Part shown: positions 3,652-24,664 of the stretch, one piece after another
Layout: every line of letters begins with the position of its first letter
How positions within the stretch are numbered: the first letter of the stretch is position 1
Origin: a virus
Lineage: Duplodnaviria > Caudoviricetes
IMG/VR virus record: IMGVR_UViG_3300037755_000190
Location: 1 to 51,980 of that record
DNA length: 51,980 nt
Reading direction: 5' to 3' (one strand)
Notes under the pieces: model-generated
What the model was told of the DNA's origin: nothing
The model's database searches: none
What the model saw: the letters and a program-made list of their open reading frames with translations, nothing else
Made by a program: the position numbers and the translations under genes

Positions 3652-4117
3652 CAGCCAGACATCTATTGGTAGTGAACGTTGCCCTGGAGAATGGTCGAAG
3701 GTGATAGTCGAAGGAGACCGTCTCTTTGCTTTCTCTGGGGCTACTTGTATGTTTGCACCGGCGATCAAATGGTACAAGAGTGGACTAGCAGCAGATCGGC
3801 CTAAGGTGGATGGCGACGAGTACAACCATACGCTTTGGGTGTTCGATCCAGACAGAGGCGCGCAGTGTTTCAACAATACCCATCAGAATCCCTATCCGGA
3901 AGTAGCTCATTTTCCTGCTGCAATGGGGAGTGGCGCCAAGTTTGCACTAGGGGCTTTCCACGCCGGAGCGTCCTTAACAGAGGCTGTCCAAATAGCCATA
4001 GCCCTCGACGTATTTAGTGGTGGCCCTGTAAAGGTAGTTGACATCCCACAAAAGACATTACCAATAGTTAAACAAACGCTGTGGGAGAGAATCAGCTATG
4101 TTGTCTGGGGACACTAG
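3611..4117 (+). CDS. Ntn-hydrolase (HslV/proteasome-beta-like) peptidase, probable ATA start
   Basis: Extending the ORF upstream of GTG 3701 gives (M)TTILTDGKQVASDSQ, the Thr1 Ntn signature; also AMGSGAKFALGA and A..LD..SGG. AAGGAG SD (3598-3603) lies 7 nt before ATA 3611, and there is an in-frame stop at 3584. Confidence 0.8.
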   Translation: MTTILTDGKQVASDSQTSIGSERCPGEWSKVIVEGDRLFAFSGATCMFAPAIKWYKSGLAADRPKVDGDEYNHTLWVFDPDRGAQCFNNTHQNPYPEVAHFPAAMGSGAKFALGAFHAGASLTEAVQIAIALDVFSGGPVKVVDIPQKTLPIVKQTLWERISYVVWGH

Positions 4118-5669: not shown

Positions 5670-6130
5670 CCTGTTGTAAATGCACTCCGGGAGATGTCTC
5701 CCCTTGCGTGCCCCTGCTGCAACACGCGGATAAATGTACGTGTGCTGCCTGTATGTCCTTCAACAAAGCGGTGCGGGATTTCATAGAGAAAGGCAATTTA
5801 AGGGATGCTATCTCCGCGATGTTTGCCAACCTTATTGATAGAGAGGTGCTCGCCCGCATACGCTTGGAGATGCGTCAACAAGAAGAGTTGAGCCCAGAAC
5901 GGTTTAATGTGATCTTAGACGACTCTATAAGAGGTGTAATTATAGGGATTACTGCGGCTCTAAATAATCTGATTGGAGGCTTTGTAAGCGACCCAATTAC
6001 ACGTCTAAGGCTCCTTGAGGATACCCAGGACGCTTTACTAGCCGCTCTGCAAACGTCTCCAAAAGAGCTTATAGAAGTGATGACTGTTAGTAGGTACGAT
6101 CCTCTTGACAGCAAGCCGACACTTCAGTAG
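5666..6130 (+). CDS. hypothetical protein with Cys-rich N-terminus
   Basis: ATGA overlap; 154 aa. Confidence 0.65.
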   Translation: MTCCKCTPGDVSPCVPLLQHADKCTCAACMSFNKAVRDFIEKGNLRDAISAMFANLIDREVLARIRLEMRQQEELSPERFNVILDDSIRGVIIGITAALNNLIGGFVSDPITRLRLLEDTQDALLAALQTSPKELIEVMTVSRYDPLDSKPTLQ

Positions 6131-6165
6131 ACACACAGCTTCTCTTTGCAGGTTAGGAACAGACC

Positions 6166-6234
6166 ATGTGGTTTTTTATCCTAGTTGCGTTGTGTCTCCT
6201 TCCCGTCGCCTATTCGGTGGCCAAGGACTTCTGA
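6166..6234 (+). CDS. 22-aa hydrophobic peptide
   Basis: AGGA SD; MWFFILVALCLLPVAYSVAKDF*. Confidence 0.45.
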   Translation: MWFFILVALCLLPVAYSVAKDF

Positions 6235-6323
6235 AAATCTCTGTCTACTGTTAACTGTTTATCAACCCATCCTAGCTATCCTGTCTTTGTAAGTACAGCG
6301 TACAACCCTAGAGAGTAGCGAGT

Positions 6324-6623
6324 ATGAAGAAGATCGAAGGCTTGGACTTAACGGGTATCTTTGACGAGGCGGAGAACGAAACCCTTGCTGAGAAGAAGCT
6401 TGGGGTGAAGAAGATCGTCTCTGGGATCATGATAAACCTCCAGGGCTGGCGGCGGGAAAGAGAGCAAGGCAAGACAGCCTGGGAGAAGTCCGACAAAAAG
6501 CTGGGGGATAAGATCGACAAAGCAGTTGCCAAGCTGGAACAGATCAAAGCAGGTAACTGGGATATCCTTATTGACGAAAACGACAAGAAGCAAGGCGCTA
6601 CCGAGACCGCCGACGCAGACTGA
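6324..6623 (+). CDS. coiled-coil hypothetical protein
   Basis: 99-aa charged helical ORF. Confidence 0.7.
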   Translation: MKKIEGLDLTGIFDEAENETLAEKKLGVKKIVSGIMINLQGWRREREQGKTAWEKSDKKLGDKIDKAVAKLEQIKAGNWDILIDENDKKQGATETADAD

Positions 6624-6677
6624 GCGAGCGGTTGGGGAAGTCCCGTAAAGTGTTGAGCCTGATCGCACCAATTCTTT

Positions 6678-7013
6678 ATGAGGGCTTCCCCAGTGGCACA
6701 CTTCGATGATACCGCTGTCCTAGCTTTACTGGCTTTCTTGCTTATCTATGTCTTAATCTTATGTGGAGAGATCGAAGTGGCTCGTCCTTTATCACATCGA
6801 ATCGTTGACGGTCTTCGTGATCTTGGCTTGTGGTTTCAGGAGAAGTGGGAGATCATTTCACCAGCTAAGTGTTGCAAGAATCCTCATCTAGTCGATATCA
6901 AGGACGGGGCGGTATGTCTTAACTGCGGTCTCCGGGATGATGATAAGTTGGACCATCGAAGAGTTGCACACTACCGTTTCATTAATCGACTTAAACGACT
7001 TACGCACTCGTAG
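6678..7013 (+). CDS. membrane-anchored protein with C-terminal Cys motifs
   Basis: N-terminal TM segment; CC and CLNC motifs. Confidence 0.6.
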   Translation: MRASPVAHFDDTAVLALLAFLLIYVLILCGEIEVARPLSHRIVDGLRDLGLWFQEKWEIISPAKCCKNPHLVDIKDGAVCLNCGLRDDDKLDHRRVAHYRFINRLKRLTHS

Positions 7014-7116
7014 CTTAATACAGGGAGGTGTGCCCCTCTCTGCCCTCCGTAAGAGGACGATAAAGCAGATGTGTCGCTAGGGCCGAAAGATGCAGGTTTG
7101 AGCCCTGCCGAGTGCT
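7004..7116 (+). ncRNA. tRNA-like RNA with expanded D-loop and irregular anticodon arm
   Basis: Perfect 7-bp acceptor GCACTCG/CGAGTGC, then TA, D-stem GCTT/AAGC and T-arm GCAGG-TTTGAGC-CCTGC. The D-loop is 46 nt and holds two hairpins. No encoded CCA. Confidence 0.6.
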
Positions 7117-7152
7117 ACCCATAGTAGCCGTTAGTGCTACCCATAATGCCGT
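7111..7152 (+). repeat. tandem direct repeat duplicating the 3' end of the tRNA-like element
   Basis: AGTGCTACCCATA at 7111-7123 and 7133-7145, each followed by a short spacer and GCCGT. Confidence 0.7.
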
Positions 7153-7202
7153 GTATCGGTGAATAGAAGATGTGTCATATGTTAACCAAGGGAGAAGTTC
7201 AA

Positions 7203-7403
7203 ATGAAGAAAGCCCACGAAGAGCAGCCGCCGGCGGCTGAAGAGCAAAGTCACGCCAAAGGGGACGAACAGCCCCGCGATGTGTCTCTTGCCCCTACGGA
7301 CGACCTCCCCAATCTCGTGACCGGCGAGTCGGAAGCGACCGAAGAGACTGTCCAGGTAGCTTCTGGCGAAACCACTACGGAAGAACAGGTCACGACAGCG
7401 TAA
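7203..7403 (+). CDS. acidic low-complexity hypothetical protein
   Basis: GGGAG SD before ATG 7203; rich in E/T/P. Confidence 0.6.
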   Translation: MKKAHEEQPPAAEEQSHAKGDEQPRDVSLAPTDDLPNLVTGESEATEETVQVASGETTTEEQVTTA

Positions 7404-7463: not shown

Positions 7464-7844
7464 ATGCAAGAGCTTGAAAACCATTTGGGTAAGACCCTTC
7501 GGGACTCTGAGACAGACACCGAGCTTGTTGAACTACACCCTACAGCACAGGATTGGAAGGCGGCTTTCTACTCTGCTCACGCACTATCCGCTACATTGCT
7601 TAAGCGAGAGAGACAAAGAGGAGAGTCGCACTTGCGTCTTTGGAATATCTGTTGGCTGAGTGGCGGATTATTAGGCTGGGGGCTTGGCACCAACATGACT
7701 TATCTTGCCCCTTCTTACAACGTTTACTGTCCTGCTTTTTTTACACTTCTAATAGCTTTCTTAATAGTATGGGATATGCAAGCTAGCCGCAAGGCTTTAA
7801 TACTTAAGGGACCACAACCCAAGAAAGAGGAGATTGGCGGGTGA
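7464..7844 (+). CDS. putative membrane protein (2 TM)
   Basis: 126 aa with two hydrophobic segments. Confidence 0.6.
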   Translation: MQELENHLGKTLRDSETDTELVELHPTAQDWKAAFYSAHALSATLLKRERQRGESHLRLWNICWLSGGLLGWGLGTNMTYLAPSYNVYCPAFFTLLIAFLIVWDMQASRKALILKGPQPKKEEIGG

Positions 7845-8856: not shown

Positions 8857-8931
8857 ACTGGGGTAGCTCAGTGGTAGAGCAAGCGGCGTATAACCGTTAG
8901 GTCGGGGGTTCGATGCCCTCCCTCAGTACCA
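8857..8931 (+). tRNA. tRNA-Ile (anticodon TAT), atypical G33
   Basis: Acceptor ACTGGGG/CCTCAGT, D-arm GCTC-AGTGGTA-GAGC, anticodon arm AGCGG-CGTATAA-CCGTT, T-arm GGGGG-TTCGATG-CCCTC, discriminator A plus CCA. Confidence 0.85.
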
Positions 8932-8934
8932 AAA

Positions 8935-9022
8935 GCTCGCGTGGCGGAATAGGTAGACGCGAGGGGCTTAAAACCCCTTATTCCTAGTGATTGTGAGGGT
9001 TCGAATCCCTTCGTGAGCACCA
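8935..9022 (+). tRNA. tRNA-Leu (anticodon TAA)
   Basis: Acceptor GCTCGCG/CGTGAGC, anticodon arm AGGGG-CTTAAAA-CCCCT, long variable arm, T-arm GAGGG-TTCGAAT-CCCTT, A plus CCA. Confidence 0.92.
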
Positions 9023-9243: not shown

Positions 9244-9505
9244 TTGTCACACTGGGTTGTCACACTACCAGAAATATGTTATCAATCAGCCCTCCCTAGT
9301 GAATAGCTAGACGAGGGTCTTTTCATGTCTATGTCGTTGAAATACCACGGATTTCCAGCCGAACCGATCTGAGCACGCCAGTGCGAATTCCGAGCCGAAG
9401 GCGAGGATATCTCCCCATGGGAGACAAGGTTCTATCGGAATTTCCTACGGTGCTTCAAGGGCTTAGATTCCCGCTTGCAACGCCTTGGCACAAGGATGTC
9501 ACAAT
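9244..9505. other. putative attP region
   Basis: Arm-type-like direct repeats TTGTCACACT x2 (9244-9253, 9257-9266), with TTGGCACAA and ATGTCACAAT (9485-9505) at the other end. Two inverted IHF-like sites (9331-9343, 9453-9465) and a central imperfect dyad TCTCC-CCATG-GGAGA. Lies immediately upstream of the integrase. Confidence 0.6.
9289..9323 (+). terminator. putative intrinsic terminator of the tRNA operon
   Basis: CCCTC-C-CTAG...CTAG-AC-GAGGG followed by TCTTTT. Confidence 0.5.
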
Positions 9506-10568
9506 GGCTACGTATCGCAAAAGAGGATCGACTTGGCAGGTTCAAATTAGGGTCAAGGGGCAATCGCCGCTTAGCCGTTCGTTCCCCACGAAAGCAGCCG
9601 GTCAAGCCTGGGCTGAGAGCGAGGAGAAAGCGTTGAAAGGGGGGACGATTAAAATTCCTCATGGCTATACCCTTGGTTGCCTATTGAGCGAATACCTAAC
9701 CGTCACTCAGTCTAGCACAGACAATGCCTTTATCAAAACGTTCATAAATAGGTGTCAGTTTTTAGATAAGCCACTCGCTAAGTTGATAGCTACGGACTTC
9801 TTAGCCTACAGAGACAGCCAACTTAAGACAGTAAAGAAAACTAGCTACAACAGGTCTATCAAGCCTATTATAGCAGCCTTTAGGTCAGCTATCGAGATGA
9901 AGCACTTTCCCGCCGATTGTGCAGATTGTCTCAAGGCCACAAAACTGAAAGCCAAGGCTACTAAGCGCAGAAGACGGTTCTGGGACCATGAAGAAAGAGC
10001 TTTTAGTACTGTCTGTAGCTGCCCTACTCTGGGGGCTGTGGTTGTGGTCCTTGTGGAAACAGCTATGCGGTCCGGTGAATTGTGGTTGGTAAAGAAACAG
10101 AACGTGAGGGACGGTATGATTTACATTCCAGAGGAAGACACAAAAACAAAAAGCCCCCGGACTATTGCGCTAAGTCCAAGGGCTCTTTCAGCGGTAGATA
10201 TTTTAATGGCACAAAGCGCTACCGAGAAACTGGTCTCACTAGGTGCTGGTGTCTTGAAGAAGAAGTTTAGAAAGGTGTGTCATCAGGCAGAGATAGTTAA
10301 TCTGCATATGCACGATCTGAGGCACGAAGCTTTGTCTAGGATGTCTGAGAAGGGCTTTGGTCCGGCTGAGATGATGTCTCAATCAGGTCATACACAACTC
10401 AATCAGCTAGGTGACTACATCCATGGCAACCCTCTGCTTATTCAGAAGAAGTTGCTAGCGATGTCACAGCTTGGAGGAAATCCTCTAGTGGAACCTGTGA
10501 TTTATTTAAGCCATCCCCGTAGTAGTACGAGTGTCCCGATGTTGTCGGAAGTCCAGCCCACTCCATAG
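9504..10568 (+). CDS. int: tyrosine integrase/recombinase
   Basis: AAGGA SD plus ATG 9504 (MATYRKRGSTWQVQIR). The catalytic set R (AMRSGEL), K (TKT), HxxR (HDLRH), H (SGH) and Y (DYIH) is intact. Confidence 0.93.
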   Translation: MATYRKRGSTWQVQIRVKGQSPLSRSFPTKAAGQAWAESEEKALKGGTIKIPHGYTLGCLLSEYLTVTQSSTDNAFIKTFINRCQFLDKPLAKLIATDFLAYRDSQLKTVKKTSYNRSIKPIIAAFRSAIEMKHFPADCADCLKATKLKAKATKRRRRFWDHEERAFSTVCSCPTLGAVVVVLVETAMRSGELWLVKKQNVRDGMIYIPEEDTKTKSPRTIALSPRALSAVDILMAQSATEKLVSLGAGVLKKKFRKVCHQAEIVNLHMHDLRHEALSRMSEKGFGPAEMMSQSGHTQLNQLGDYIHGNPLLIQKKLLAMSQLGGNPLVEPVIYLSHPRSSTSVPMLSEVQPTP

Positions 10569-11058
10569 CCAATCTATTAGCAAAGGTGTTCTTATCCATC
10601 TCGCCCCTTAGGTAACTATCAAGCCCCCGACGCCTCATCAGATGTACGGCCATTCTGTCTTGAAGCTCGGGGGTCATCTTTTCGTCCCCTGTAAGCCCCA
10701 ATTCTTTCTTTACGCCCGTCAGAGTCTTGTTGAGAAACTGATAGCGGCCTATGGCTGTGCTAGGCGATCCCTGGGCCTTCATCTGGCCTTGGAAGTCCAA
10801 CACCTCATCGACGCTCATATTCGTGACAGGTACCCTTCCCTTGACACCAAAGGCGTCCTCATAGCCCTTCTGAGAGGCTTCTGCACGGCCGATTAGGTCA
10901 AGCATACCTTTCATAGGTCCAGCCCCGTAAGCAGCCCCTACAGCCTCTACCTTGCTCCTGGTGCCATCATCGATATCCAAGGTATCCGGCTTGTAAGCCT
11001 GCCGAGGGTTAATGGCCGTGAAGTTGAAGACAGAAGATTGTTGCGGCTGCTCTACCGT
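10438..11058 (-). CDS. lambda-R/GH104-like lysozyme domain, probably expressed as a -1 frameshift extension of 11052..13103
   Basis: Motifs LDLIGRAE, STAIGRYQF, PELQD and EWAGLP..SYY. The frame is open from the A7 run at 11058-11064. The first conventional start is a TTG at 10980 with no clear SD. Confidence 0.85.
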   Translation of the reverse strand, partial: TVEQPQQSSVFNFTAINPRQAYKPDTLDIDDGTRSKVEAVGAAYGAGPMKGMLDLIGRAEASQKGYEDAFGVKGRVPVTNMSVDEVLDFQGQMKAQGSPSTAIGRYQFLNKTLTGVKKELGLTGDEKMTPELQDRMAVHLMRRRGLDSYLRGEMDKNTFANRLAMEWAGLPTTSGHSYYYGDGLNKSQVPLEDFLQAVTSLATSSE

Positions 11059-13103
11059 TTTTTTCCTTCTCCCTCTCCTCCACTCGGGGGGTTGTCTTTC
11101 TCGAAGTTCCTAATCGCCCCTTCGCGCATTTTAGTCCAGAAGGAAGCTTCTTTAGGGGCCATCGTATTAATGCCCATTCCGTTGAACAGACCAAGCAGTT
11201 CTTTACTAATGTCCTGCCCATCGGCCTTGAGTATAGGCGCTAAGACAGCGATCTGCCTATTGAACTCCTGTACGGTCGCGTCAACGTTGTCTGTAAACTT
11301 GTTCTCTACACTTCGTAGAGCGCCAGCAAGGGGATTACGCCAGTCGCTTTTACGCTCAGAACCAGAGGTTACGTTGAACCTATTGGCGTCCTTATCATAA
11401 TCAATCTTGATATTAGGGCGCATAGTGACACCCTCTTGGATCGTATTGGCCATCTGACGGAACAAACCACCAAAGCTATCTAAGGTCCACTGCTTGTATT
11501 GGTTCCATGCCTGAGGGTCGGTGGCTTTCATCTTAACCATAGTCTTAGTTACCTCTGGAGAGGCTAGGCGAGTGTAGATGCCTGTCTTCTGTTCCGGTTT
11601 GATACCCGATAAGAAATCAGAGTTCTCCGGGCCAAACAAACTCTTAGCTGTATTTAAGACAATCTGAGGTGACGCTCTGGGATTAGTTATAACGTCAACG
11701 CGGTCTTTAATCTGCTGATACTGTAGCTTAGAACGAGTCGGCTTATCTACGTTAGTATGCTTATTGTCGTCCATGTCTTTCTTGAGGGAAGATGAATCTC
11801 CCGACATGCCCTTAGCCAAAGAGATATTACGGAGCTGTTGAGCTGCCACAGACTTCATCTTTTGCCCTTGAGGAGACAGTAGCATTTCGTCTAAAAGCTC
11901 TTGCCCACCCTGGTCCTTAACAGCTTGCATAATCCTGATTTGATCGGAGCTTTCAATAACCTTGCGGTTAGCTTCGTCTTTAAGAGCTTTAGTCCTGACT
12001 ATATCCGCATTAAGTACGCCGTACTCTTTATCGTTGAGTAGCTTCTCATAATAGTTAATACGATTAAGAGCTGTCTCCTGAATGTGCTTTATCTTCTCTG
12101 GGGACTTGATAGCGTTATAGTAGGTTGTCTGTCCGTCGGCCCATGGTTTCTCAAGGATACCCTGAACGCCTTGCTGTACCTTAAACTTCAACTCTGAGAA
12201 CTGTTGACGTAAAGCCATTTGCTCATCTGGGGTAAAGCTTTTGGGGTCTTTCCTAGCTTTATCCATGAGTAGAGTAAAGTTCTTAGAGGTATCTGCCGTA
12301 TCAAGGATAATACGATTGGTAAATCCAGTGACTTCATCTAACGCAGTACCGACAGATTGTTCTTCGGTAAGATTGCCCTGATCCTTAGCAAGTGCCAATC
12401 TGTTTCGTTTAAGCTCAACGGCTAGCTTCTCTTGGGCTCTTTCTTGAACATAAGCCCTTGTTTCAATCTTAGTATAGGCTTGCCCAGCATTCTGACGCTG
12501 GTAGTAGTCGGGAGGAAGGAACTCGTTATTAGTGTCTACGAAGGTATTGAACTTCTTCTCGTCTTCGTTCTTCTCCGCTAAGGTTGATGTCCATTCTTTA
12601 CGTTTAGCTTCAATCGCCGCCGCAGCAGGACGATGACCAAGAGCAGATGTAACTTGCGCCTCAATCTTGTCTGCGTAAGCTGGATACCTTGCTCTTGCCT
12701 GCTTAACCATAGCATCCATTTGAGACCAGTACTGTGAGGCACTGATACGGCCTTCCGAATAGGCTTGGGTTATCTTCTTACCCGTAGTACCTATACGCTG
12801 GATGTCTGTGTTAGCAGCCGGATCGGCTGGAGCCTCTGGTTTAACTAGAGTATCGCCTGCCTCACCTCCTGAGATTGCAGATACGCCAGTAGAATCTGTA
12901 GTCGTACTGTCAACGATCCCCTGAGCAATCTTATCTGCTTCAGCTTTCTGTTGTGTCTCATGGAAGTCTGACTTAAGCTCAATCCCCTGGGCAATACCAG
13001 TGAAGAGCTTTTTCATAGCCTTGTTACCGTCCCCTTCTTTGGAGTACCCAATATAGCTAGGATCATTTGCGCCTTGTACCTCAGCGCCGAACGCTTTAAC
13101 CAT
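11052..13103 (-). CDS. internal virion (ejection) protein
   Basis: 683-aa helical Q/K/D-rich protein, last gene of the late arm after the giant virion protein. Confidence 0.75.
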   Translation of the reverse strand: MVKAFGAEVQGANDPSYIGYSKEGDGNKAMKKLFTGIAQGIELKSDFHETQQKAEADKIAQGIVDSTTTDSTGVSAISGGEAGDTLVKPEAPADPAANTDIQRIGTTGKKITQAYSEGRISASQYWSQMDAMVKQARARYPAYADKIEAQVTSALGHRPAAAAIEAKRKEWTSTLAEKNEDEKKFNTFVDTNNEFLPPDYYQRQNAGQAYTKIETRAYVQERAQEKLAVELKRNRLALAKDQGNLTEEQSVGTALDEVTGFTNRIILDTADTSKNFTLLMDKARKDPKSFTPDEQMALRQQFSELKFKVQQGVQGILEKPWADGQTTYYNAIKSPEKIKHIQETALNRINYYEKLLNDKEYGVLNADIVRTKALKDEANRKVIESSDQIRIMQAVKDQGGQELLDEMLLSPQGQKMKSVAAQQLRNISLAKGMSGDSSSLKKDMDDNKHTNVDKPTRSKLQYQQIKDRVDVITNPRASPQIVLNTAKSLFGPENSDFLSGIKPEQKTGIYTRLASPEVTKTMVKMKATDPQAWNQYKQWTLDSFGGLFRQMANTIQEGVTMRPNIKIDYDKDANRFNVTSGSERKSDWRNPLAGALRSVENKFTDNVDATVQEFNRQIAVLAPILKADGQDISKELLGLFNGMGINTMAPKEASFWTKMREGAIRNFEKDNPPSGGEGEGKKR

Positions 13104-16100
13104 TATTCTTCTTCTGCCTGTCCACTAATCATTTCCCTACGTGCCTCAGACTGCCCTACAGGAGCCTTGCGCCAAAAGTCCTCGCGTACCGCGTTAAATA
13201 AGTTCTCGTGTCCCTTGACAGCGCCACGAAGGATAGCGCCGTGCTTAGATGGGTTAATACCACTGGACACCAACCATGCTTTAGCTCTCTTAAGGTAGCC
13301 ATCTCCTAATTCCTGATTTCCATCGGTGTATTCAGAGATCGCCTTACGATACCATTTCTGCACTTCTTTGACTGCTGCGTCTTCAGCCTTACGTTGCTCT
13401 TTACGTGACTGGATCATTATGAAGGTATCACCAACATCTCTATTCGTGAGTCCCATAGCACCGGACATAAAGGCATCAAAGCCAGTCGCGTTATCGACAA
13501 CAACCGTACCATTCCGTGTAAAGTAACGTCCCTGATTATAGAGATACCATGCTTTCGCCGCGTTATTGATAGACGATATGTTGCGAGTAACTTCTAGGAA
13601 GTCCTCCATAGTGGGAGGCGCTACGCTTTCGTCAAAAAGAGACATAAGAGCAGCCGTAGCCGGTTCAGCCGATTTGATCATATCACCTATGATAGAACCA
13701 GACGCGCCCAGCAATAAATCTATGACTGTCTTCTCACCACTGATGGCATCTTTGAAAAGACTCGTACCACCTGGACCGTAACGTTCCGAGACGTTGTACT
13801 GCTTGCCAGTGGCCACAGAGAGCATGGTAGAGAGCAAACCATCGTGCATAGCCTGGATAGCTACATTGTCCATAGGGACGCCACGCTCTAGGGCTGCTTG
13901 TCGGATATCCTCATAGTAAGGCCATACGCCCGCACCCGCACCAGCGGCTACAGGAACCCCGTACACGGCTGCATAGGTCATATAGGCTTGACGCTTCTCA
14001 GCGCCTGATAGGCGACTCCCCCAGCCCGGCAAGAGCTGTTCTGCTAGGCGTGCCTGGAAAGCTAGGAACTGCGTAGGAATGCCCACGATGCCTTGCTGCC
14101 ACGCTGCGTTAGAAGCCCTAGTCATATTGGCTGCCATCAGATCGGCTCGCTTAAGCACTTGGTTACGTGCAGCGTTATCCATTACAGCCTTTGGGTTAAG
14201 ATCCCTCCAAGCGTAGTAAGCAGCGTTCCAAGCAGACAAGCGGACAAAGCGTTCACCCTCGTCGAAGAACATCGTGCCCTTCTCTAAGAAGGTGCCAAAG
14301 GTTCCCTTAAACAAGTTAGGGTCGAACACGTCGTCACGCCAAGCCACTTCGCCACCAACATTGTAGTAGCCAGTCCTACGCATCTCTGCATAGGATTCTT
14401 TGAAATGATCGGCGTTGCTAGACCACCTCGCGAACTGATTGATAATGTTTTCGTCTTCAGTCAGCCGGAGCATACGCATACGAATAGCGTCACCAGCACC
14501 CCTGATAGCCATCTGAGGGCCAGCGATAGCCATGACGTGTACAAAAGACTGTGCCTGTAACGCTAACTGGACTGGATTAAACAAGCCTAGTTTAGTATGG
14601 AAGGCAATGGATCGAGCGTAAGTGAAAGGGTCTTTGACCGTAGGAAGTAAGTTCTCTGTTACATAGTCAGAAGCTTTTTGCCCTAACCGAGTGTAAACCT
14701 GATCGACAATCTTATTCTGAAGCCACATCATCTTTGAGCTAAGATCGGAACTAGCCCCAATGAACATGATGTTAGCTCTGCGTGTGTTCTGTGCAGCGGC
14801 TAATAACGCTTTGTTCTTTGTCTCCGTATCCCAGACAGGATTATGGAAGTAATAGATAGGATTGCGCCGTAGTTCCTCGGGAGTCGTCTTCATCACAGAC
14901 CAGAACTCGTTGATAAAGTTCTCCACGGCGGTCGTCTTATAATCATTCATGTGACGACTACGCGAGACGTTGGCAATAGCCTTATTGAGCGTGTCCAGGG
15001 GAGACAGGAGCCGTGGTTTATCTAATTGAAAGATCGGCTTGGATTCAGTGCCCAATTCTTGTACACGCGGCAAGTCGGGATCGCGGGAGCCCAGATACTT
15101 CTTGTCAACATTCTGTGCGAATAGATTGTATTTGGAACGCACACCGTTAAAGAACCCTTCGTACTGACGAAAAGCCCCCTTGAAGTGTTCCATGTCCGAA
15201 GTGTTACGCCCAGCCGCTGTCCATGTAATAGGATCGTCCATATGCAGCAACGCAGGTCTAATAGTTCCATCAGGCATCACCTTAGAACTAAAGAACGACT
15301 TGAAGGTCTCAATATCCCAAGGTGTATTCTGGTATAGGAAGGTCTTTAGAGCGTCCATTTTATTGTCACGAAGCAGTAACCTAGCGTCGTCTGCCGCTTG
15401 GGCGTAACGCTTAGCCTCAACCTCAGTGGCGACATTTAAGAGGGACGTATCGCCTTCATAGATGTGCCGTAGTGAGCCCGAGGCTGTAGACCGACGCAGA
15501 TTAGGCTGCTTGATAAAAAACTTGTCGCCATACTCGACGTGACCACCCGGACGGTAAGGCAGAATGTTCCAATCAAACTTAGCGTTCTCAAAGTTCTTTA
15601 CGACAGCAAAGTGAATGGTTTCCGTAGTGCCCGCTACATCCAAAAGAGGTTTCTCTAGTGGGTTAACAATCTCGACTACTTTAAACCCACGATCCTTAAC
15701 GTTGCCGTCTAGTGTGTCTCGCACGTCTTGTGTCAATTGAGAGCGTAGGAAAAACTCGCCCTTGTTCTTCTTGGCTGGATCATAGAGCCAAACACCAAAG
15801 TCCTCGGAACCATCATCCCAAGGTATACGATCATTAAGCCGCCCTGCGAACTGTCGAGACGCCTTAGTCTGGGCTTGCCCTAGTTCATCTGTTGTCTGGT
15901 AGAAGATAGTTGTCTTCTCTGCACCCATACGGGCCAAGTCACGATGAAGGGCTAAGTTACGGAGGATGTAATCCATGTCGTAAAGTTGCGTGTAGGTAAA
16001 GTATGCCTCGATCTGCTTTTCACTGGGCTGTTGCTTGAACCTATCAAAGAACGCGTTCTCGAATTCACCGATAGTCGTATGGAACAGACCACGCTCCCCA

Positions 16101-19100
16101 CTAGATTCATCGATGTAATCTCTGTTCTTCTCCCAGATTGTGTTAAGCTGGCTCTTTTCCTTCTTAGTCAAATCCTTGCGTAGCACCTTAGACGCATCCA
16201 ACATCAAACGATGGATCTCTTGAGCCGCTGTGGTCGCTAGCTGACGATTAGAGTTGGCCAATGTGCTTAGTAGATCATCTGGCGTCCTGATAAGACCGAG
16301 GAAAGTGTTTAAGATGCCCTTCGGGCTAGTGTTATCTGTGGAGACAATAAGATCACGCACACTGTCTAGCGTCTCGTCAACGCTTTTGGCAATGTTGATA
16401 TAGAAACCGTCGCCCTGCTGCAAGATGCTAAACTGATTAGGCTTAAGACCGTACATGTCAGTGCCGAATAGAGCCGCCTGAGCCGGATTGTCAAATAGAC
16501 TACCGTCTGCCTTACCCATACGAAGATGGACAACAGTGGTGTTAACTAACTGATCTTCCGGGCGCGTAACTGAGAAAGGACCGCCAAAGGAGACATCAAG
16601 GAAGGCATCATTAACATGTGTGTAGGTTGTCTTGAGGACACCTTTTGCTTCCTCAATAGCCTTCTGTAAAGCCTCGGCTGGTAATCTAACGATAGCCGAG
16701 TTGTTAAGGGGTATACCTAACAGTTTGACAGCGTTACGCTTAAGAGCCGCTAGAACACGATCAGACTTCGCCTTGGTTAGCGATTGTCCGTTGGAGGCAA
16801 CTTCGTCAACGTTAAAGATAGATGGTGTTAGCTTAACTAGATTGCGACTATCGTCTAGAGGGTCTCCACCTCTCCAGGCTTGTCTTGCCCTACCATAGAC
16901 ATCAAGAGAAACAGCAGCATCAGACATACCAGCTTCCGCTAGGACACCATCACCTGTCTCCATCATGCCAGCACGACTTGTTGCTTTGAAGCTGTTCTTT
17001 ATCTGCTCAGCGTCACCAGCCTTTTTAGCGTACAGCTCATTAAGAGCCAATTCGTTTATTAAGGCTTCATAGCTCTGTAAGGTCTGACCAGATTGCTTTG
17101 GGTTGCCATACTTGAGCTTTGCTTTCTCCGTGTTGAAGTAAATCCACTCATCAGCGTTAGCAAAGTCATCGTCCGCCATCTGACCACCCATCTTGCGCCA
17201 GGCTTTCAGCTCGTACTGCTTACGCAAAGAGTCTTCGTCTACTATAACAGTGCGTGTGGCTTCGTCGTAGTACGCATAGCCTTGACCCTTGGGGGTAGGC
17301 TTAGTCTTCACAGGCAAATTTGTAACTGGATCGGTTGGAATCGTCTTTGTCGGGGGCATTAGAGGCGGCGCTTTTACCACCACCGGAGGCTCCCTGACAG
17401 CGGTAGGCTTACGGCGGTTCTTGATAGTGTAGGGAATAGGTTCGGGAGACTGCCCCATAGCGATGTTACGGGAGGTCTGGAGCCCAGCCTTTAGGCGTTC
17501 TTTGTAGAGCTTAGTTAGTGCCAGGGCATTAATAATATTCTCGTATTGAGCAGTGGTTTGCCCCTTGGCCTGAAGAACAACGGCGTGGGCCGTCTCGTGC
17601 CAAAGAACAAACTCCGTCATAGCACCAATGTCGTCAATTAGCGCTTTTGGAACGAAGTTGGCACCGGGATAAAACGGCTCGTTTTTAGCAAAACGCCTTT
17701 CCGCTTCAGCCGAAAAATACCACGGATCGAGACCAACATTGTGTCTCGCTACTACTTTACCCTTGCTCTTGGTAGGGCTATAAGCGTAAATCGCGTCATC
17801 TTGTTTATATGTGTATGTTGGCCAGGGCTTAAATCTGTCGTCCAGAAAGTCTAATGCTTTAGCGTCCTGCCAAGGCTCAACAACAGTATCTTTAAGAAGC
17901 GATCGTATGGCGTCATCTACATACTTTTCGTCGTTGAGAGAGCCGCTAAGAATAGAGCGACCAATGCCAGCGCCCCGCATAAAGGAATAGAGAGCATCTT
18001 TACCACCTTTGTACGCCTTTTCAAAGAAATCCATATTAGTGTCTAGCGCAGGTGAAACACGATCTACTATATCTGTTAGATTAATAGAAATCTGCTGTGT
18101 GGTCTTTGGAAACTCTCCATAGTCTCTGGCAGAACCAAAACTGAAAGTCCCATCTTCATCTGCGTAACGCACTTTATCGTGGCGAGTATAGTGGTATGTC
18201 GCATTACCGTTCTCATAGGTAATCTTTATGTCGGGTGCGTTTTGACCTTGAGGCCCTATTGTCTCTGGAGCCTGACGGACGGGACTTGTTGGCGCGCCTT
18301 CAGACGCAACCTCTGTAGTGTTCCTGAAAGCTAAACGCTTCTTGATACTATCGGCGACCGTTTGTCCAACCGTCTTACCAACCTTGCCCGTCACTTCAGC
18401 CACTTTAGAGACATCAACAGCAAGTTTAGCTGGCTTAAGGAAGGGTAGGAACGATGTCATGTCCAGAGCACCAAAGGTGTTATCTAGGAGCTGATCGTTG
18501 CTGGAATAGTTAATGACACCCTGAGCAAAGCTTAGAGCGTCTAATGGACTATCTTCCGCGATCTTACGGACAGCAAGTTCTAACTGCGTCTTAAACTCAG
18601 AGGGGCGCAGTGTGTATAGGTATTCTACTTCCTCAGAGATTGTATTACCAAAGAGGAGACCACCCGTCAAAGGAGCGGCGGCAACAGCGCCAGTAAGATT
18701 TGTGTAAGCCCAGAAGGGAATAATTTGCTTTGCGTAAGCGAGAGCGGTCCCTCCGATGCCTGTTTGCTTCCACTCGTGCTCTGCATCCTCAAGGACAGCC
18801 TTAGCTATCTGATTGCGAGCGATGAGTTTGACCGCCGCGTCTGAGGCGTCTAGGTACTCCCAAGGAAGCTTATTTAGCGCCTCTTGGTGATTGCTTTGCC
18901 CGTTGATAAGGGAGGGAATAGTTGAGACAACCCACTCACCGTACATCTCCTCAAGCACGGTCTTAGGATCGCTTGCCGTCGAACTACCTACGATGCCCAT
19001 CAGCTCGTCGGCCTCTGAAGTTGTCAGGGGGCGGTTAATGGTGCTAGTGATCTCTTGGACCATCCCCAGGCGCATCTTACGGTCCTCAAGGCTCTTGGAG

Positions 19101-19378
19101 GCTGCTAGGGCCTGTCTGAGTTCGGGCTCGTCTCCATTCGCTAGCTGATTGACAATGCTGTCGTAGCCAGGGGATTTTGCCCCCATAGCGAAGTTAGCCT
19201 TGGTAGCACGCCTAGCGATAACGTCGGGATCGGTACTAGGGCTAGTCGTTAGCCCCCCAGGCGAAGACATGTCGAGATCATAGTAAAGGTTCTCAGCAAC
19301 AGGACCGCCAGCTTGCGCTTCTTCGGAAATGTCAACATCAATGAACTGAGTATCAACCCCAGGCGGCTTAAGTTCCAA
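13103..19378 (-). CDS. giant internal virion (ejection) protein with zincin-like HExxH insert
   Basis: 2091 aa in the T7 gp16-like position; FVLWHETAH motif at 17585-17611. Confidence 0.8.
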   Translation of the reverse strand: MELKPPGVDTQFIDVDISEEAQAGGPVAENLYYDLDMSSPGGLTTSPSTDPDVIARRATKANFAMGAKSPGYDSIVNQLANGDEPELRQALAASKSLEDRKMRLGMVQEITSTINRPLTTSEADELMGIVGSSTASDPKTVLEEMYGEWVVSTIPSLINGQSNHQEALNKLPWEYLDASDAAVKLIARNQIAKAVLEDAEHEWKQTGIGGTALAYAKQIIPFWAYTNLTGAVAAAPLTGGLLFGNTISEEVEYLYTLRPSEFKTQLELAVRKIAEDSPLDALSFAQGVINYSSNDQLLDNTFGALDMTSFLPFLKPAKLAVDVSKVAEVTGKVGKTVGQTVADSIKKRLAFRNTTEVASEGAPTSPVRQAPETIGPQGQNAPDIKITYENGNATYHYTRHDKVRYADEDGTFSFGSARDYGEFPKTTQQISINLTDIVDRVSPALDTNMDFFEKAYKGGKDALYSFMRGAGIGRSILSGSLNDEKYVDDAIRSLLKDTVVEPWQDAKALDFLDDRFKPWPTYTYKQDDAIYAYSPTKSKGKVVARHNVGLDPWYFSAEAERRFAKNEPFYPGANFVPKALIDDIGAMTEFVLWHETAHAVVLQAKGQTTAQYENIINALALTKLYKERLKAGLQTSRNIAMGQSPEPIPYTIKNRRKPTAVREPPVVVKAPPLMPPTKTIPTDPVTNLPVKTKPTPKGQGYAYYDEATRTVIVDEDSLRKQYELKAWRKMGGQMADDDFANADEWIYFNTEKAKLKYGNPKQSGQTLQSYEALINELALNELYAKKAGDAEQIKNSFKATSRAGMMETGDGVLAEAGMSDAAVSLDVYGRARQAWRGGDPLDDSRNLVKLTPSIFNVDEVASNGQSLTKAKSDRVLAALKRNAVKLLGIPLNNSAIVRLPAEALQKAIEEAKGVLKTTYTHVNDAFLDVSFGGPFSVTRPEDQLVNTTVVHLRMGKADGSLFDNPAQAALFGTDMYGLKPNQFSILQQGDGFYINIAKSVDETLDSVRDLIVSTDNTSPKGILNTFLGLIRTPDDLLSTLANSNRQLATTAAQEIHRLMLDASKVLRKDLTKKEKSQLNTIWEKNRDYIDESSGERGLFHTTIGEFENAFFDRFKQQPSEKQIEAYFTYTQLYDMDYILRNLALHRDLARMGAEKTTIFYQTTDELGQAQTKASRQFAGRLNDRIPWDDGSEDFGVWLYDPAKKNKGEFFLRSQLTQDVRDTLDGNVKDRGFKVVEIVNPLEKPLLDVAGTTETIHFAVVKNFENAKFDWNILPYRPGGHVEYGDKFFIKQPNLRRSTASGSLRHIYEGDTSLLNVATEVEAKRYAQAADDARLLLRDNKMDALKTFLYQNTPWDIETFKSFFSSKVMPDGTIRPALLHMDDPITWTAAGRNTSDMEHFKGAFRQYEGFFNGVRSKYNLFAQNVDKKYLGSRDPDLPRVQELGTESKPIFQLDKPRLLSPLDTLNKAIANVSRSRHMNDYKTTAVENFINEFWSVMKTTPEELRRNPIYYFHNPVWDTETKNKALLAAAQNTRRANIMFIGASSDLSSKMMWLQNKIVDQVYTRLGQKASDYVTENLLPTVKDPFTYARSIAFHTKLGLFNPVQLALQAQSFVHVMAIAGPQMAIRGAGDAIRMRMLRLTEDENIINQFARWSSNADHFKESYAEMRRTGYYNVGGEVAWRDDVFDPNLFKGTFGTFLEKGTMFFDEGERFVRLSAWNAAYYAWRDLNPKAVMDNAARNQVLKRADLMAANMTRASNAAWQQGIVGIPTQFLAFQARLAEQLLPGWGSRLSGAEKRQAYMTYAAVYGVPVAAGAGAGVWPYYEDIRQAALERGVPMDNVAIQAMHDGLLSTMLSVATGKQYNVSERYGPGGTSLFKDAISGEKTVIDLLLGASGSIIGDMIKSAEPATAALMSLFDESVAPPTMEDFLEVTRNISSINNAAKAWYLYNQGRYFTRNGTVVVDNATGFDAFMSGAMGLTNRDVGDTFIMIQSRKEQRKAEDAAVKEVQKWYRKAISEYTDGNQELGDGYLKRAKAWLVSSGINPSKHGAILRGAVKGHENLFNAVREDFWRKAPVGQSEARREMISGQAEEE

Positions 19379-19845: not shown

Positions 19846-20346
19846 TTATGCTCTTTCGCATGTCTTTAAATATGCTTTCTCACTTAATTTGTATCCAAGG
19901 CGCTCATAGTACTTCCCAACCTTATCTGCGTACTCTCCGTTTAATGAACATAGCTGGAAATAATCCGCCTTGGCTACTTCTTTTGACCAGTACTCAAAGG
20001 CTTGTATTAGTTGGATGCCCACTCCCGATTGTCTGTGTTCTTCGTCAACCCACCAAAGTACCTCTGTAGCCACTCTAGCCTTCGAGAAAATGATGGGCTG
20101 AACACTAGCGGCAAGGATGGCGATGGGCTTGCTTTCCAGTAGTCCCAGGATGATAATTCGATTAGAGGGGTCGTATATAAATTCGCTGATGATAGAGTTG
20201 ATTTTGTCTTCGTCATGTCCGTATTCACTGTAAATAGATGCCTTATAGAAATCGATGCAGAGGCGTTTAATATCGTCAAAGTCTGCTAATGTGCCTAATT
20301 TAAGACTATACGCCTTGGTTGCTTGTTTCAAATACCGACCAGCCAA
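19846..20346 (-). CDS. GNAT acetyltransferase (tail module)
   Basis: Acetyl-CoA motif A EVLWWVDEEHRQSGVG; YYERLGYKLSE. Confidence 0.85.
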   Translation of the reverse strand: MAGRYLKQATKAYSLKLGTLADFDDIKRLCIDFYKASIYSEYGHDEDKINSIISEFIYDPSNRIIILGLLESKPIAILAASVQPIIFSKARVATEVLWWVDEEHRQSGVGIQLIQAFEYWSKEVAKADYFQLCSLNGEYADKVGKYYERLGYKLSEKAYLKTCERA

Positions 20347-22751: not shown

Positions 22752-23527
22752 CGGGCGCGTCTCCCATAATTAGGTAATTTGTCCATAGCGGACAGTGCAT
22801 CTTCGTGCGGCAAAGCTTGTTTAGCTCGCTCTGCGTGAATCATTTGGTCTCTGGCTTCTTTACGCGCTAAGGCGTGGTCTGATTGTTTCAGTTCAGCAAA
22901 GGCTAGAGCTTTGGATTTATTCAATAAAAGCGAGAACTGCTCTGCATCCAGATCGGGGGTAAAGCTATCTGATTGCGTCCAGGTCGCTGTCTTCTGTCCG
23001 TAGGCCACTGTTTTAGATTTCTGCAAGGTGGTATCTACGTCAGCATCATAGGAATCAAAGATAAAAGTGTAGTCGTCTAGGGAAGTCCACCATTCCGGAG
23101 CTTTGTCATTGAGACAGAAGATGGGCAAACTATCCGAGCCGACTACTAAGCTAAAGTCCACAACGTTCGTCTGATCTGTGTCTAGCTGATACATCTGCTC
23201 AAAGAAGTCTTCGGGATTCTTGTACTTGACGGGTTGGATCAGGCTTGCTGTGTCTCCATCTGCAATTTTGTCATACTTGATCCACAGAACGTTAAGGACA
23301 TCACTGGGTAGGTACATAAGTGTTGGTTTTGAGCTATCTCCAGAGGCCGTTAGTTCGAACAAAGAGAAGTGTTCTGGAAGCTCAAGTCGAGACACGATAT
23401 CCCAATAACAGCGCTTGATAATAGCTACGACTTGTAGAGCCTCTGTCGTGTCTGTTATGCTGTTAATCTCGTCACTGTCCATTGCAGACAGGATTTCTTG
23501 GGTAAGCTCTAGTACTGTGGATTTCAT
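22748..23527 (-). CDS. tail tubular protein A / adaptor
   Basis: N-terminus MKSTVLELTQEILSAMDSDEINSI.DT.EALQV, C-terminus PNYGRR; gene position. Confidence 0.8.
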   Translation of the reverse strand: MKSTVLELTQEILSAMDSDEINSITDTTEALQVVAIIKRCYWDIVSRLELPEHFSLFELTASGDSSKPTLMYLPSDVLNVLWIKYDKIADGDTASLIQPVKYKNPEDFFEQMYQLDTDQTNVVDFSLVVGSDSLPIFCLNDKAPEWWTSLDDYTFIFDSYDADVDTTLQKSKTVAYGQKTATWTQSDSFTPDLDAEQFSLLLNKSKALAFAELKQSDHALARKEARDQMIHAERAKQALPHEDALSAMDKLPNYGRRAR

Positions 23528-23916
23528 CGAGTTTTAAGGTAATCCATAAAGCTGCGACCTAGCTTTTCAATAGGCCGTGTTAGAAAGTAAGACAGAATAA
23601 TGGTCTGCTCTAAATTCTCGTAAGGTGAAGGAAGTTTTGCAATACCCCACCCAAGAGTAAAGGTGCTATCCAAGGCAATTGCCCCGATATGTAGAATAAA
23701 AGGATAGACCACGAGAGGGCGTATGGCCGCAGTAACCCACCAGCCTTGCTCGACAACGAGTATTTCTTTCTGTAGCTTTCTCGTTTCAAGTTCTGCCTGG
23801 ATTGTAGCAACTGCGATTTGTGCATTAGCGTCTGTCTTCTTTGAGTAGGCGTCTAGGAGTTTGTCTAAGACACCTCCCGTGAGCCAGCTAATCAGATATG
23901 TGAATATTTTTAGCAT
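23524..23916 (-). CDS. holin (3-TM type)
   Basis: WWVTAAIRPLVVY and SYFLTRPIEK motifs with TM segments; adjacent to the endolysin. Confidence 0.7.
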   Translation of the reverse strand: MLKIFTYLISWLTGGVLDKLLDAYSKKTDANAQIAVATIQAELETRKLQKEILVVEQGWWVTAAIRPLVVYPFILHIGAIALDSTFTLGWGIAKLPSPYENLEQTIILSYFLTRPIEKLGRSFMDYLKTR

Positions 23917-24664
23917 AGGAGTAGAGACCGTACCCAACGACCGCTAGGAGAGCTAACATGAAGGCCAGCGCAAAGGGGTTGTTCACCGCACCTACAAGGC
24001 CAGCACCACAAGCCGTGATCAAACCCGTTAAGGAGAGCTTCCAAGGGGTCTCTGAGGGGGTAGTAATGTCTCCTGCTGCCCCTAATCCCTCGGGCACCGT
24101 TGGCCGCTCCTGGATGATCTGTATGCCCTCTGAGGCCATCTCTAGGGCTGTGGCTTTGACCCCCTTCACACGACTTCCCCAGCCCTTGCCGAACGTCACC
24201 CAAGTACCGAGGGTATGAAGCCAACCTAGCCGGTCATCACAGACACGAGAGATCAGGGCAGGTAGGTTTTCAACGGAGGTAGCGGCGTCTAGCGTGGCAG
24301 GCCCCATGAGCCCATCGATCTTTAGCTTTCGCCCTTCCGCCTTGTTGAGAGCTTTCTGCAAGAATTTGATGGAACGATGGGGGCCACTGTTGACACCAAA
24401 ATCGAAGACAACCAAGTCCAGACCAATAGGGAGAAGATCGCCCTTCACCGCGTCCCAATAACTACTCTTGTAGATGTCTTCCATCTCGCTGCGTGTAATC
24501 TTTTTAACATCGCGAGGAGTAAGTTGCTTTAGGCGTCGGTAGGAGTTATAAACCCGCTGAATAATACCCCACTGTGTCTTTCCACCGGGGTCTTTAGGAT
24601 GATTAGAATACCCACCCTCCCATTTAAGGGTTTCAGCTAAACAGTCTTTAAAGTTAACTTTCAT
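23888..24664 (-). CDS. GH108 endolysin with PG-binding domain and C-terminal hydrophobic tail
   Basis: EGGYSNHPKDPGG.T.WGI, FDFGVNSG, DGLMGPATL and FGKGW..RV motifs. Confidence 0.92.
   Translation of the reverse strand: MKVNFKDCLAETLKWEGGYSNHPKDPGGKTQWGIIQRVYNSYRRLKQLTPRDVKKITRSEMEDIYKSSYWDAVKGDLLPIGLDLVVFDFGVNSGPHRSIKFLQKALNKAEGRKLKIDGLMGPATLDAATSVENLPALISRVCDDRLGWLHTLGTWVTFGKGWGSRVKGVKATALEMASEGIQIIQERPTVPEGLGAAGDITTPSETPWKLSLTGLITACGAGLVGAVNNPFALAFMLALLAVVGYGLYSYAKNIHISD

Follow-up and report, generated by a model that had tools for sequence, protein, structure and literature searches.

How is a lysozyme domain translated when it lies in the −1 frame directly behind a virion gene, and the first 26 codons of that open frame hold no ATG, GTG or TTG? 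This question is raised by the IMG/VR virus record IMGVR_UViG_3300037755_000190, a complete-looking genome of 51,980 bp (the whole stretch of DNA that was analyzed, hereafter the window), which carries a podovirus-type structural module on the minus strand. The row of genes in this module ends with a gene for a 2091-amino acid (aa) protein, a gene for a 683-aa protein presumed to be an internal virion or ejection protein (here called the carrier), and, last, the lysozyme open reading frame (ORF). An initial annotation, made from the sequence alone, had proposed that a −1 frameshift at the end of the 683-aa gene yields isoforms of 683 and about 888 aa. After the comparative tests reported here this is the best-supported reading, still short of proof, and we give a probability of about 0.7 to −1 ribosomal frameshifting at a run of seven adenines (A7) that would join the carrier to the lysozyme.

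Anatomy of the junction between the carrier gene and the lysozyme ORF

All coordinates are positions in the 51,980-nucleotide (nt) window, and the junction is read on the minus strand. The 683-aa gene, as defined by its ORF and translation, occupies 11052..13103 (minus strand), and its 3′ end reads GGA GGA GAG GGA GAA GGA AAA AAA CGG TAG. It was found that the heptamer A_AAA_AAA at 11064-11058 stands in the X_XXY_YYZ phase of a slippery site (GGA AAA AAA), where it codes for the final two Lys residues, and that it is followed immediately on its 3′ side by the CGG codon and the 0-frame stop codon TAG (together 11052..11057, with the TAG at 11054-11052). Located 12 nt 5′ of the heptamer is a Shine-Dalgarno (SD)-like GGAGG (11081-11077, minus strand), a candidate stimulator with a putative function; an SD-like element about 10-14 nt upstream is the typical spacing of −1 sites of the dnaX and insertion sequence (IS) types. 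In the −1 frame, a TAG lies 5′ of the junction at 11112-11110, and from the slip site onward no stop interrupts the 206 codons that end at the one at 10440-10438. The −1-frame product from the slip site begins TVEQPQQSSVFNF, and the predicted fusion is 682 + 206 = 888 aa long. The gene end, the heptamer and its phase, the GGAGG and its spacing, the upstream TAG and the 206 open codons leading into the lysozyme are all located in the sequence where the initial annotation had placed them.

Runs of seven adenines are avoided in the window genome, where 2 were found compared to 9.8 ± 4.2 in shuffled sequences. One of the window's two A7/T7 runs (seven adenines or seven thymines) is exactly the junction heptamer at 11058-11064. 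The second, at 7736-7742, lies within a plus-strand ORF (7464-7844).

Readthrough of the stop codon was considered as another route into the lysozyme and rejected, because the 0 frame closes again 37 codons past the TAG and never reaches the lysozyme.

The same fusion would result from transcriptional slippage, in which RNA polymerase lengthens the A7 run by one A and the resulting A8 transcripts bring the lysozyme in frame. However, efficient bacterial transcriptional slippage usually needs runs of about 9 or more, and it requires neither the exact X_XXY_YYZ phase nor an SD-like element at the spacing of ribosomal −1 sites, both of which are present here. These points leave only a slim chance for this explanation, in spite of the absence of a recognizable phage RNA polymerase among the window genes scanned and of the known slippage at homopolymeric A runs (a topic covered in the review PMC5009743).

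Conservation of the junction among close relatives

Besides the window's own gene call, 13 homologues of the 683-aa protein were found in the database, originating from independent assemblies (Logan, JGI and ENA). They are 33-83% identical to the 683-aa protein, all are 675-691 aa long, and 0 of the 14 proteins is fused to a lysozyme. The C terminus is Gly/Ala-Lys-Lys in 13 of the 14, followed by Arg-stop in 10 and directly by the stop in 3; the KK-ending homologues are 51-83% identical to the window protein, and the sole exception is the 33%-identical P0015. This GKK(R)-stop ending is kept despite variable preceding residues (for example, ...DADGKKR and ...DANGKK).

At the nucleotide level, the relative L002 (protein P0011, 55% aa identity to the window protein) has the identical 33 nt, from the GGAGG through the A7, CGG and TAG to AGC, and its lysozyme ORF stands in the same −1 frame relation as in the window. 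Conservation of the SD-like element, heptamer and stop in related phages had been proposed as a check in the initial annotation: the SD-like element, heptamer, phase and stop are all identical in L002, and the amino acid motif behind the SD-like element is kept in part of the homologues, as described below. Comparison of codons gene-wide between the window and L002 showed that 166 of the 365 identical degenerate residues share a codon, whereas the last 10 of 10 are identical. This 10-codon identical run is the longest in the gene, with a P of about 4e-4 if its place is specified in advance, and we count the result as supportive, not decisive.

An assembly or sequencing error is a further way to account for the frame break: the true genome would have A8, and carrier and lysozyme would form a single uninterrupted ORF of about 889 codons. 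Some sequencing platforms are prone to errors in homopolymers, and the wider family does include fused forms. However, such an error is very unlikely, and indeed hardly credible, because none of the 14 database proteins is fused, because A7 is read in both the IMG/VR and the ENA assemblies of the L002-type relative, and because Logan contigs from 3 runs (X1, which is possibly the source sample, X2 record 4 and X4 record 21) cross the A7 without an indel.

The search for further loci was carried out in several ways. No relative was found in viral contigs when the 683-aa protein alone was used as the query, whereas the alignment-based search (A1) found only L002 in viral contigs and nothing in metagenome contigs or genome contigs. 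In viral contigs, a 17-nt junction pattern led back to the L002 phage (L003) and otherwise only to two unrelated sequences that match by chance (L004 and L005); in metagenome contigs, a degenerate 30-nt junction pattern retrieved L006 alone. A tblastn search of GenBank phages with the 683-aa protein gave no match. The loci L003 and L010 are on L002's own IMG/VR contig and are not separate relatives, and L006, an ENA contig, equals L002 across the junction region read in both and was taken as the same phage.

Coding behavior of the −1-frame linker

A linker of 48 codons (10915..11058, minus strand) leads in the −1 frame from the slip site to the lysozyme domain, and no ATG, GTG or TTG occurs in the first 26 codons of this linker (11058-10981). 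This start-less part holds the motifs TVE and AYKPDT, both common to the window and L002, and within AYKPDT 4 of the 4 nucleotide differences between the two are at synonymous third positions. The same motif recurs as AFRPDT, SFRPDT or KPDT within the called ORFs of P0033, P0019 and P0035. In a relative that is about 87% identical to the window without gaps (X4 record 21), at least eight differences fall within 11008-11044, of which, read in the −1 frame, five are silent and three are conservative replacements (Q>K, S>T, N>D), and a near-identical relative (X2) has a 3-nt insertion directly past the 0-frame stop. On these comparisons, the −1-frame linker 5′ of any start evolves like coding sequence.

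Three traits expected of a bacterial-type −1 frameshift site are found together at this junction: a heptamer in phase, an open −1 ORF with coding constraint and no conserved start of its own (a result obtained from small numbers and from part of the contig differences), and conservation of the heptamer, of its phase and of the nearby stop.

The carrier and its wider protein family

An exhaustive protein search with a family profile (A1) gave 1466 members at E ≤ 0.001, and domains were counted in the 150 best representatives. It was found that 83 of the 150 are at least 780 aa long and that 47 of the 150 carry the window-type lysozyme in frame, behind a linker whose median length is 43 aa. When 10 long forms without the window-type lysozyme were sampled, 6 carried another hydrolase at the same place and 4 had no Pfam hit in the extension. 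The alternative C-terminal hydrolases, as identified with Pfam, are VanY (P0058), CHAP (P0064), SLT (P0072) and Peptidase_M15_3 (P0087, P0089 and P0094). This variety of in-frame hydrolases on carrier homologues amounts to module swapping on one scaffold.

Two in-frame fusions were obtained in a lysozyme-based search for IMG/VR loci. The L030 locus has a single 841-aa ORF (P0055), which consists of a full-length carrier homologue and an in-frame window-type lysozyme; its carrier part matches the 683-aa protein with a hidden Markov model (HMM) E value of 8.4e-54 and, in hhalign, a probability of 99.8% (E 2e-30). The gene upstream of this fusion is homologous to the C terminus of the window 2091-aa protein (33% identity, 1.6e-44), the genes switch strand after the fused gene as in the window, and the junction is without an A run. 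The second in-frame fusion, L011 (P0056), has a long Pro/Thr-rich linker.

Because relatives bear a lysozyme, VanY, CHAP, SLT or M15 domain in frame at the same place, the 683-aa protein is, as judged by homology, the carrier module of a large virion-protein family with a swappable C-terminal muralytic domain. The wider family is normally a single in-frame polypeptide. The window holds both parts of this architecture, with the muralytic domain in the −1 frame, and in the window clade a conserved slippery sequence marks the point at which the domain is displaced into that frame. Other clades have short-form carriers (P0074, P0113 and P0118) that likewise end in KK or KKK, and these may hold further A-rich slip sites.

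The 683-aa protein itself had no match in Pfam or PHROG. An AlphaFold2 (AF2) model of it was all alpha-helical with a mean predicted local distance difference test (pLDDT) score of 65.7, and a Foldseek search of the PDB with this model gave 0 matches at E ≤ 0.001. An Atlas search with the carrier gave leads only (scores 0.84-0.88). The label of ejection protein in the initial annotation is therefore not backed by homology to a characterized internal or ejection protein in Pfam, PHROG or PDB folds, but it is consistent with the gene order, in which the 683-aa gene comes after that of a phrog_12003 protein, and with the fused muralytic domains of the family, both of which suggest a place in the ejection apparatus.

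Candidate start codons and evidence against frameshifting

The first canonical start in the −1 frame is a TTG at 10978..10980 (minus strand, SD score −3.3), and P0030 starts at the same alignment column. The initial annotation had taken this TTG as the only nearby start, which was incomplete, as the in-frame ATGs 10914 and 10905 sit just before the catalytic domain. Among 10 phages, the first start codon of the ORF falls in 5 different alignment columns, namely at "MPI" in 3 phages, at "KPDT" in 1, at "LDIDDG" in 2, at "M(D/E)..G" in 2 and at the Met before the domain in 2. As aligned, no start upstream of the domain is conserved, while the linker is.

These starts are central to an alternative in which the ancestral fused gene has, in this clade, undergone fission only, such that the carrier ends at the TAG, the lysozyme is made solely from its own start (ATG 10914, TTG 10980 or, in L002-type phages, the "MPI" ATG) and enters the virion or acts as a protein apart from the carrier, and the A7 represents no more than two AAA Lys codons. 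A number of observations favor this alternative and count against frameshifting. The Met 7 residues before LDLIG..AE, encoded by ATG 10914, is kept in 9 of 10 relatives, with Val in P0035, although the neighboring residues vary, and ATG 10914 has an SD score of −5.0, which is typical for the phage and no worse than the gene median of −4.1. Therefore, independent initiation of the lysozyme is possible, and a free 158-aa lysozyme may also be made; SD scoring fails to discriminate among the candidate starts. The lysozyme ORF is called as a separate gene in the database (P0030-P0035), the call for the window ORF (P0031) being 155 aa. Short forms without a muralytic domain make up 67 of the 150 family representatives, and thus the unfused state is common in the family. 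Furthermore, the lysozyme homologues of cultured phages (Stappia SI01 and Rhizobium RHph_X2_24) are encoded by separate genes, each of which has its own start and lacks a slip site, and so the frameshift arrangement is not general for this lysozyme domain.

Some results on stimulatory elements, and the depth of the comparison, are to be weighed on the same side. A search of the junction and the region downstream of it, in the window and in L002, found no downstream RNA structure that beats shuffled sequences (z of +0.79, +0.19, −0.67 and +0.23). In the minimum free energy folds of window positions 10990-11090 and L002 positions 5990-6090, the purine tract 5′ of the slip site pairs with a pyrimidine-rich tract 10-30 nt on its 3′ side, with energies no better than those of shuffles. 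The SD-like tract is encoded by a Gly-Gly-Glu motif, which 9 of the 13 KK-ending homologues possess and P0008, P0012, P0013 and P0014 lack. Conservation at the nucleotide level comes from one independent relative, the L002 phage, and from short Logan contigs, whose differences from the window include at least 8 at 11008-11044 in X4. A 10-codon identical run arose somewhere in the gene in 1240 of 20000 shuffles. Lastly, A_AAA_AAA is far less shift-prone than A_AAA_AAG in E. coli, according to PMC5009743.

Fission alone, however, leaves unexplained the conserved GKK(R)-stop and the 33-nt junction, and also the 26 start-less codons with their open frame, conserved motifs, mostly synonymous changes and 3-nt indel. 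It likewise provides no explanation for a first start that shifts among 5 places in 10 phages, and it would leave a 137-nt non-coding gap in a tightly packed row of genes. We regard fission alone as unlikely, although it is to be taken seriously.

Proposed mechanism and its implications

In the preferred explanation, −1 ribosomal frameshifting, the 683-aa gene and the lysozyme ORF would be two frames of one gene for a virion protein composed of a carrier plus a muralytic domain. The majority of ribosomes would stop at the TAG to give the 683-aa carrier, whereas on a fraction of them two Lys-tRNAs would slip back one base in tandem on A_AAA_AAA, one codon before the stop. The shifted ribosomes would then read the linker of about 48 aa into the lysozyme and produce a minor fusion protein of about 888 aa. 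Slippage is likely stimulated by the SD-like GGAGG, located 12 nt 5′ of the heptamer, and by slow decoding of the CGG codon followed by termination. In the resultant virion, most carrier subunits would be bare, and a minority would have a peptidoglycan-cutting tip. It has been reported that AAA-AAA gives −1 frameshifting in E. coli (PMC1851650) and that the SD is needed for dnaX frameshifting (PMC5600365). We infer that slippage takes place at the junction heptamer, with an efficiency that may be low, in keeping with enzyme-tipped subunits being the minority.

On balance, it is probable that a whole clade of uncultured podoviruses from freshwater and sediment sets the share of enzyme-bearing subunits by means of a conserved −1 shift, and that an ancestral, always-fused protein was thereby replaced by a mixture, within a family of more than 1,400 proteins that would exist in three states (fused, frameshift-bridged and split) with free swapping of lysozyme, SLT, CHAP, VanY and M15 domains.

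If this is true, the junction is a conserved and comparatively well-documented case of recoding that controls the dose of a virion-borne cell-wall enzyme, a type of recoding so far known mainly for tail chaperones and capsid proteins. It would bear on how the podovirus ejection complex is built, suggesting a mixed subunit composition, and it would show that phages move among fused, frameshifted and split gene layouts. Gene callers annotate two unrelated genes at such a locus and therefore overlook both the fusion protein and what the 683-aa "hypothetical protein" family really does. The junction could also serve mechanistic studies, as a naturally occurring A_AAA_AAA site that has an SD-like element on its 5′ side and lacks an obvious structure on its 3′ side.

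The lysozyme domain

The lysozyme domain, which is also the candidate free 158-aa product, extends from ATG 10914 to the stop (10438..10914, minus strand). The ORF matches phrog_90 ("endolysin") at 6.6e-24 and had no Pfam hit. A profile of the lysozyme family (A4) matched the lambda lysozyme (1AM7/3D3D) with an E of about 3e-4 over profile positions 92-167, and an invariant Glu (E61 of the −1 ORF), found in the "AE" of the lysozyme family, lies outside of the aligned part. The lysozyme of the initial annotation is recognized as a phrog_90 endolysin-type protein, and its assignment to GH104 and the lambda R type is tentative.

The best match of the lysozyme profile among solved structures was the PDB chain 11mn_A, a "66 kDa protein" (E 8.8e-7, residues 276-349 of 359), ahead of the lambda lysozyme. 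An AF2 model of the lysozyme ORF had a pLDDT of 46.1, which was too poor, and it was not used for a fold search.

The muralytic ORFs of the clade fall into two length classes: a short class of 155-205 aa (the window, P0030 and P0032-P0035) and a long class of 371-412 aa (L002, at 6058-7296, and P0017-P0019), the latter with an extra C-terminal domain of about 220 aa without a Pfam hit. In the window, the integrase gene comes next after the lysozyme stop, where the L002 ORF runs on into the extra domain.

Genome context

The minus-strand structural module of the window includes genes for a terminase, a portal, a major head protein, a tail protein and a tail-spike-like protein, as well as a 722-aa tail-tube-B/"tail appendage" protein that is about 30% identical to proteins of SIO1-like, Lentibacter and Vibrio podoviruses. 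The 2091-aa internal virion protein (13103..19378, minus strand) matches phrog_12003 at 4.2e-36, and the stop of its gene and the start of the 683-aa gene have 1 nt in common. A GNAT acetyltransferase gene (19846-20346) lies between the tail-tube-B gene and the internal protein genes, a layout also present in SIO1-like, Lentibacter and Celeribacter podoviruses, and the structural module also includes a gene for a 158-aa protein.

A lysis pair is located at 23524-24664 (minus strand), consisting of a 258-aa GH108 endolysin with a PG_binding_3-like part (PF05838, 1.5e-29) and, next to it, a 137-aa holin-like protein (phrog_12264, with a weak match to the phrog_3427 holin). Because this separate GH108 endolysin and holin-like gene are present, the lysozyme behind the carrier gene is a second muralytic enzyme that is not needed for lysis.

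A tyrosine integrase gene (9381-10568, plus strand; phrog_1, 5.2e-37) is convergent with the lysozyme ORF, the final 131 nt of which it overlaps, and genes for tRNA-Ile(TAT) and tRNA-Leu(TAA) are found just upstream of the integrase at 8857-9022. The early region encodes a Cas4-domain exonuclease (phrog_1990, 2.6e-29) at 679-1383 and a homologue of an HslV-family peptidase (phrog_1040, 3.8e-22) at 3701-4117.

Comparison with known systems

In the lambda G/GT tail chaperone and the T7 capsid protein 10A/10B, ribosomes that shift to −1 close to the 3′ end of a structural gene produce a minor form with a C-terminal extension. The predicted layout of the window gene is like that of these systems, with the difference that the extension is an enzyme domain rather than a chaperone or capsid extension. 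The window site also resembles those of E. coli dnaX and of the IS911/IS1 type in its A-rich X_XXY_YYZ heptamer, Lys-tRNA decoding, internal SD-like element and nearby 0-frame stop; dnaX, however, has A_AAA_AAG and a downstream hairpin, whereas in the window the last base of the heptamer is A and no hairpin beyond those of shuffles was found.

Muralytic domains on podovirus internal proteins are represented by the N-terminal transglycosylase of T7 gp16 and the C-terminal lysozyme of phiKMV gp36. As in these phages, the hydrolase of the window would belong to a large internal or ejected protein whose gene comes after those of the tail tube, with a separate endolysin for lysis (GH108 in the window). 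However, T7 gp16 and phiKMV gp36 are single in-frame polypeptides, unlike the window gene, and no sequence or fold similarity was found between the 683-aa protein and the T7 core proteins. The in-frame relatives (L030/P0055, L011/P0056 and P0067-P0071) share with the window a homologous carrier, the same lysozyme domain and the same gene position. They differ in that there is neither a frame break nor an A7 at the junction, and every subunit would carry the enzyme.

A literature search for frameshifting that links a virion lysozyme with an internal or ejection protein turned up only the genome announcement of Alteromonas phage vB_AspP-H4/4 (MF278336), and the words "lysozyme", "internal virion", "ejection" and "podovir" do not occur in the first 300,000 characters of the review PMC5009743. 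According to the announcement (PMC5658483), gene 39 (endolysin) overlaps gene 40 (internal virion protein) at a putative slippery sequence, and gp40 is made by a −1 frameshift. The initial annotation, which held that such frameshifts were not known for ejectosome lysozymes, had overlooked this annotated precedent. A joined coding sequence is annotated in the H4/4 record, with a 161-aa endolysin ORF, and the site reads GTA AAA AAG TAG. Both phages are podoviruses in which a muralytic domain and an internal virion protein occupy two frames, with an A-rich heptamer followed by TAG, in the row of internal-protein genes. H4/4 has the reverse order, however, with the lysozyme ORF in front and the large protein added by the −1 shift. 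The H4/4 heptamer is A_AAA_AAG compared to A_AAA_AAA in the window, H4/4 belongs to the Autographiviridae, a family different from that of the window phage, its lysozyme is not detectably related to the window lysozyme (hhalign probability 0.5%), and its frameshift is known from annotation only.

Therefore, this type of −1 recoding and virion-borne muralytic domains were already known, whereas a C-terminal enzyme added by a predicted frameshift on this carrier family, the conservation of the arrangement in a clade, and the occurrence of fused, frameshifted and short states across the family are new.

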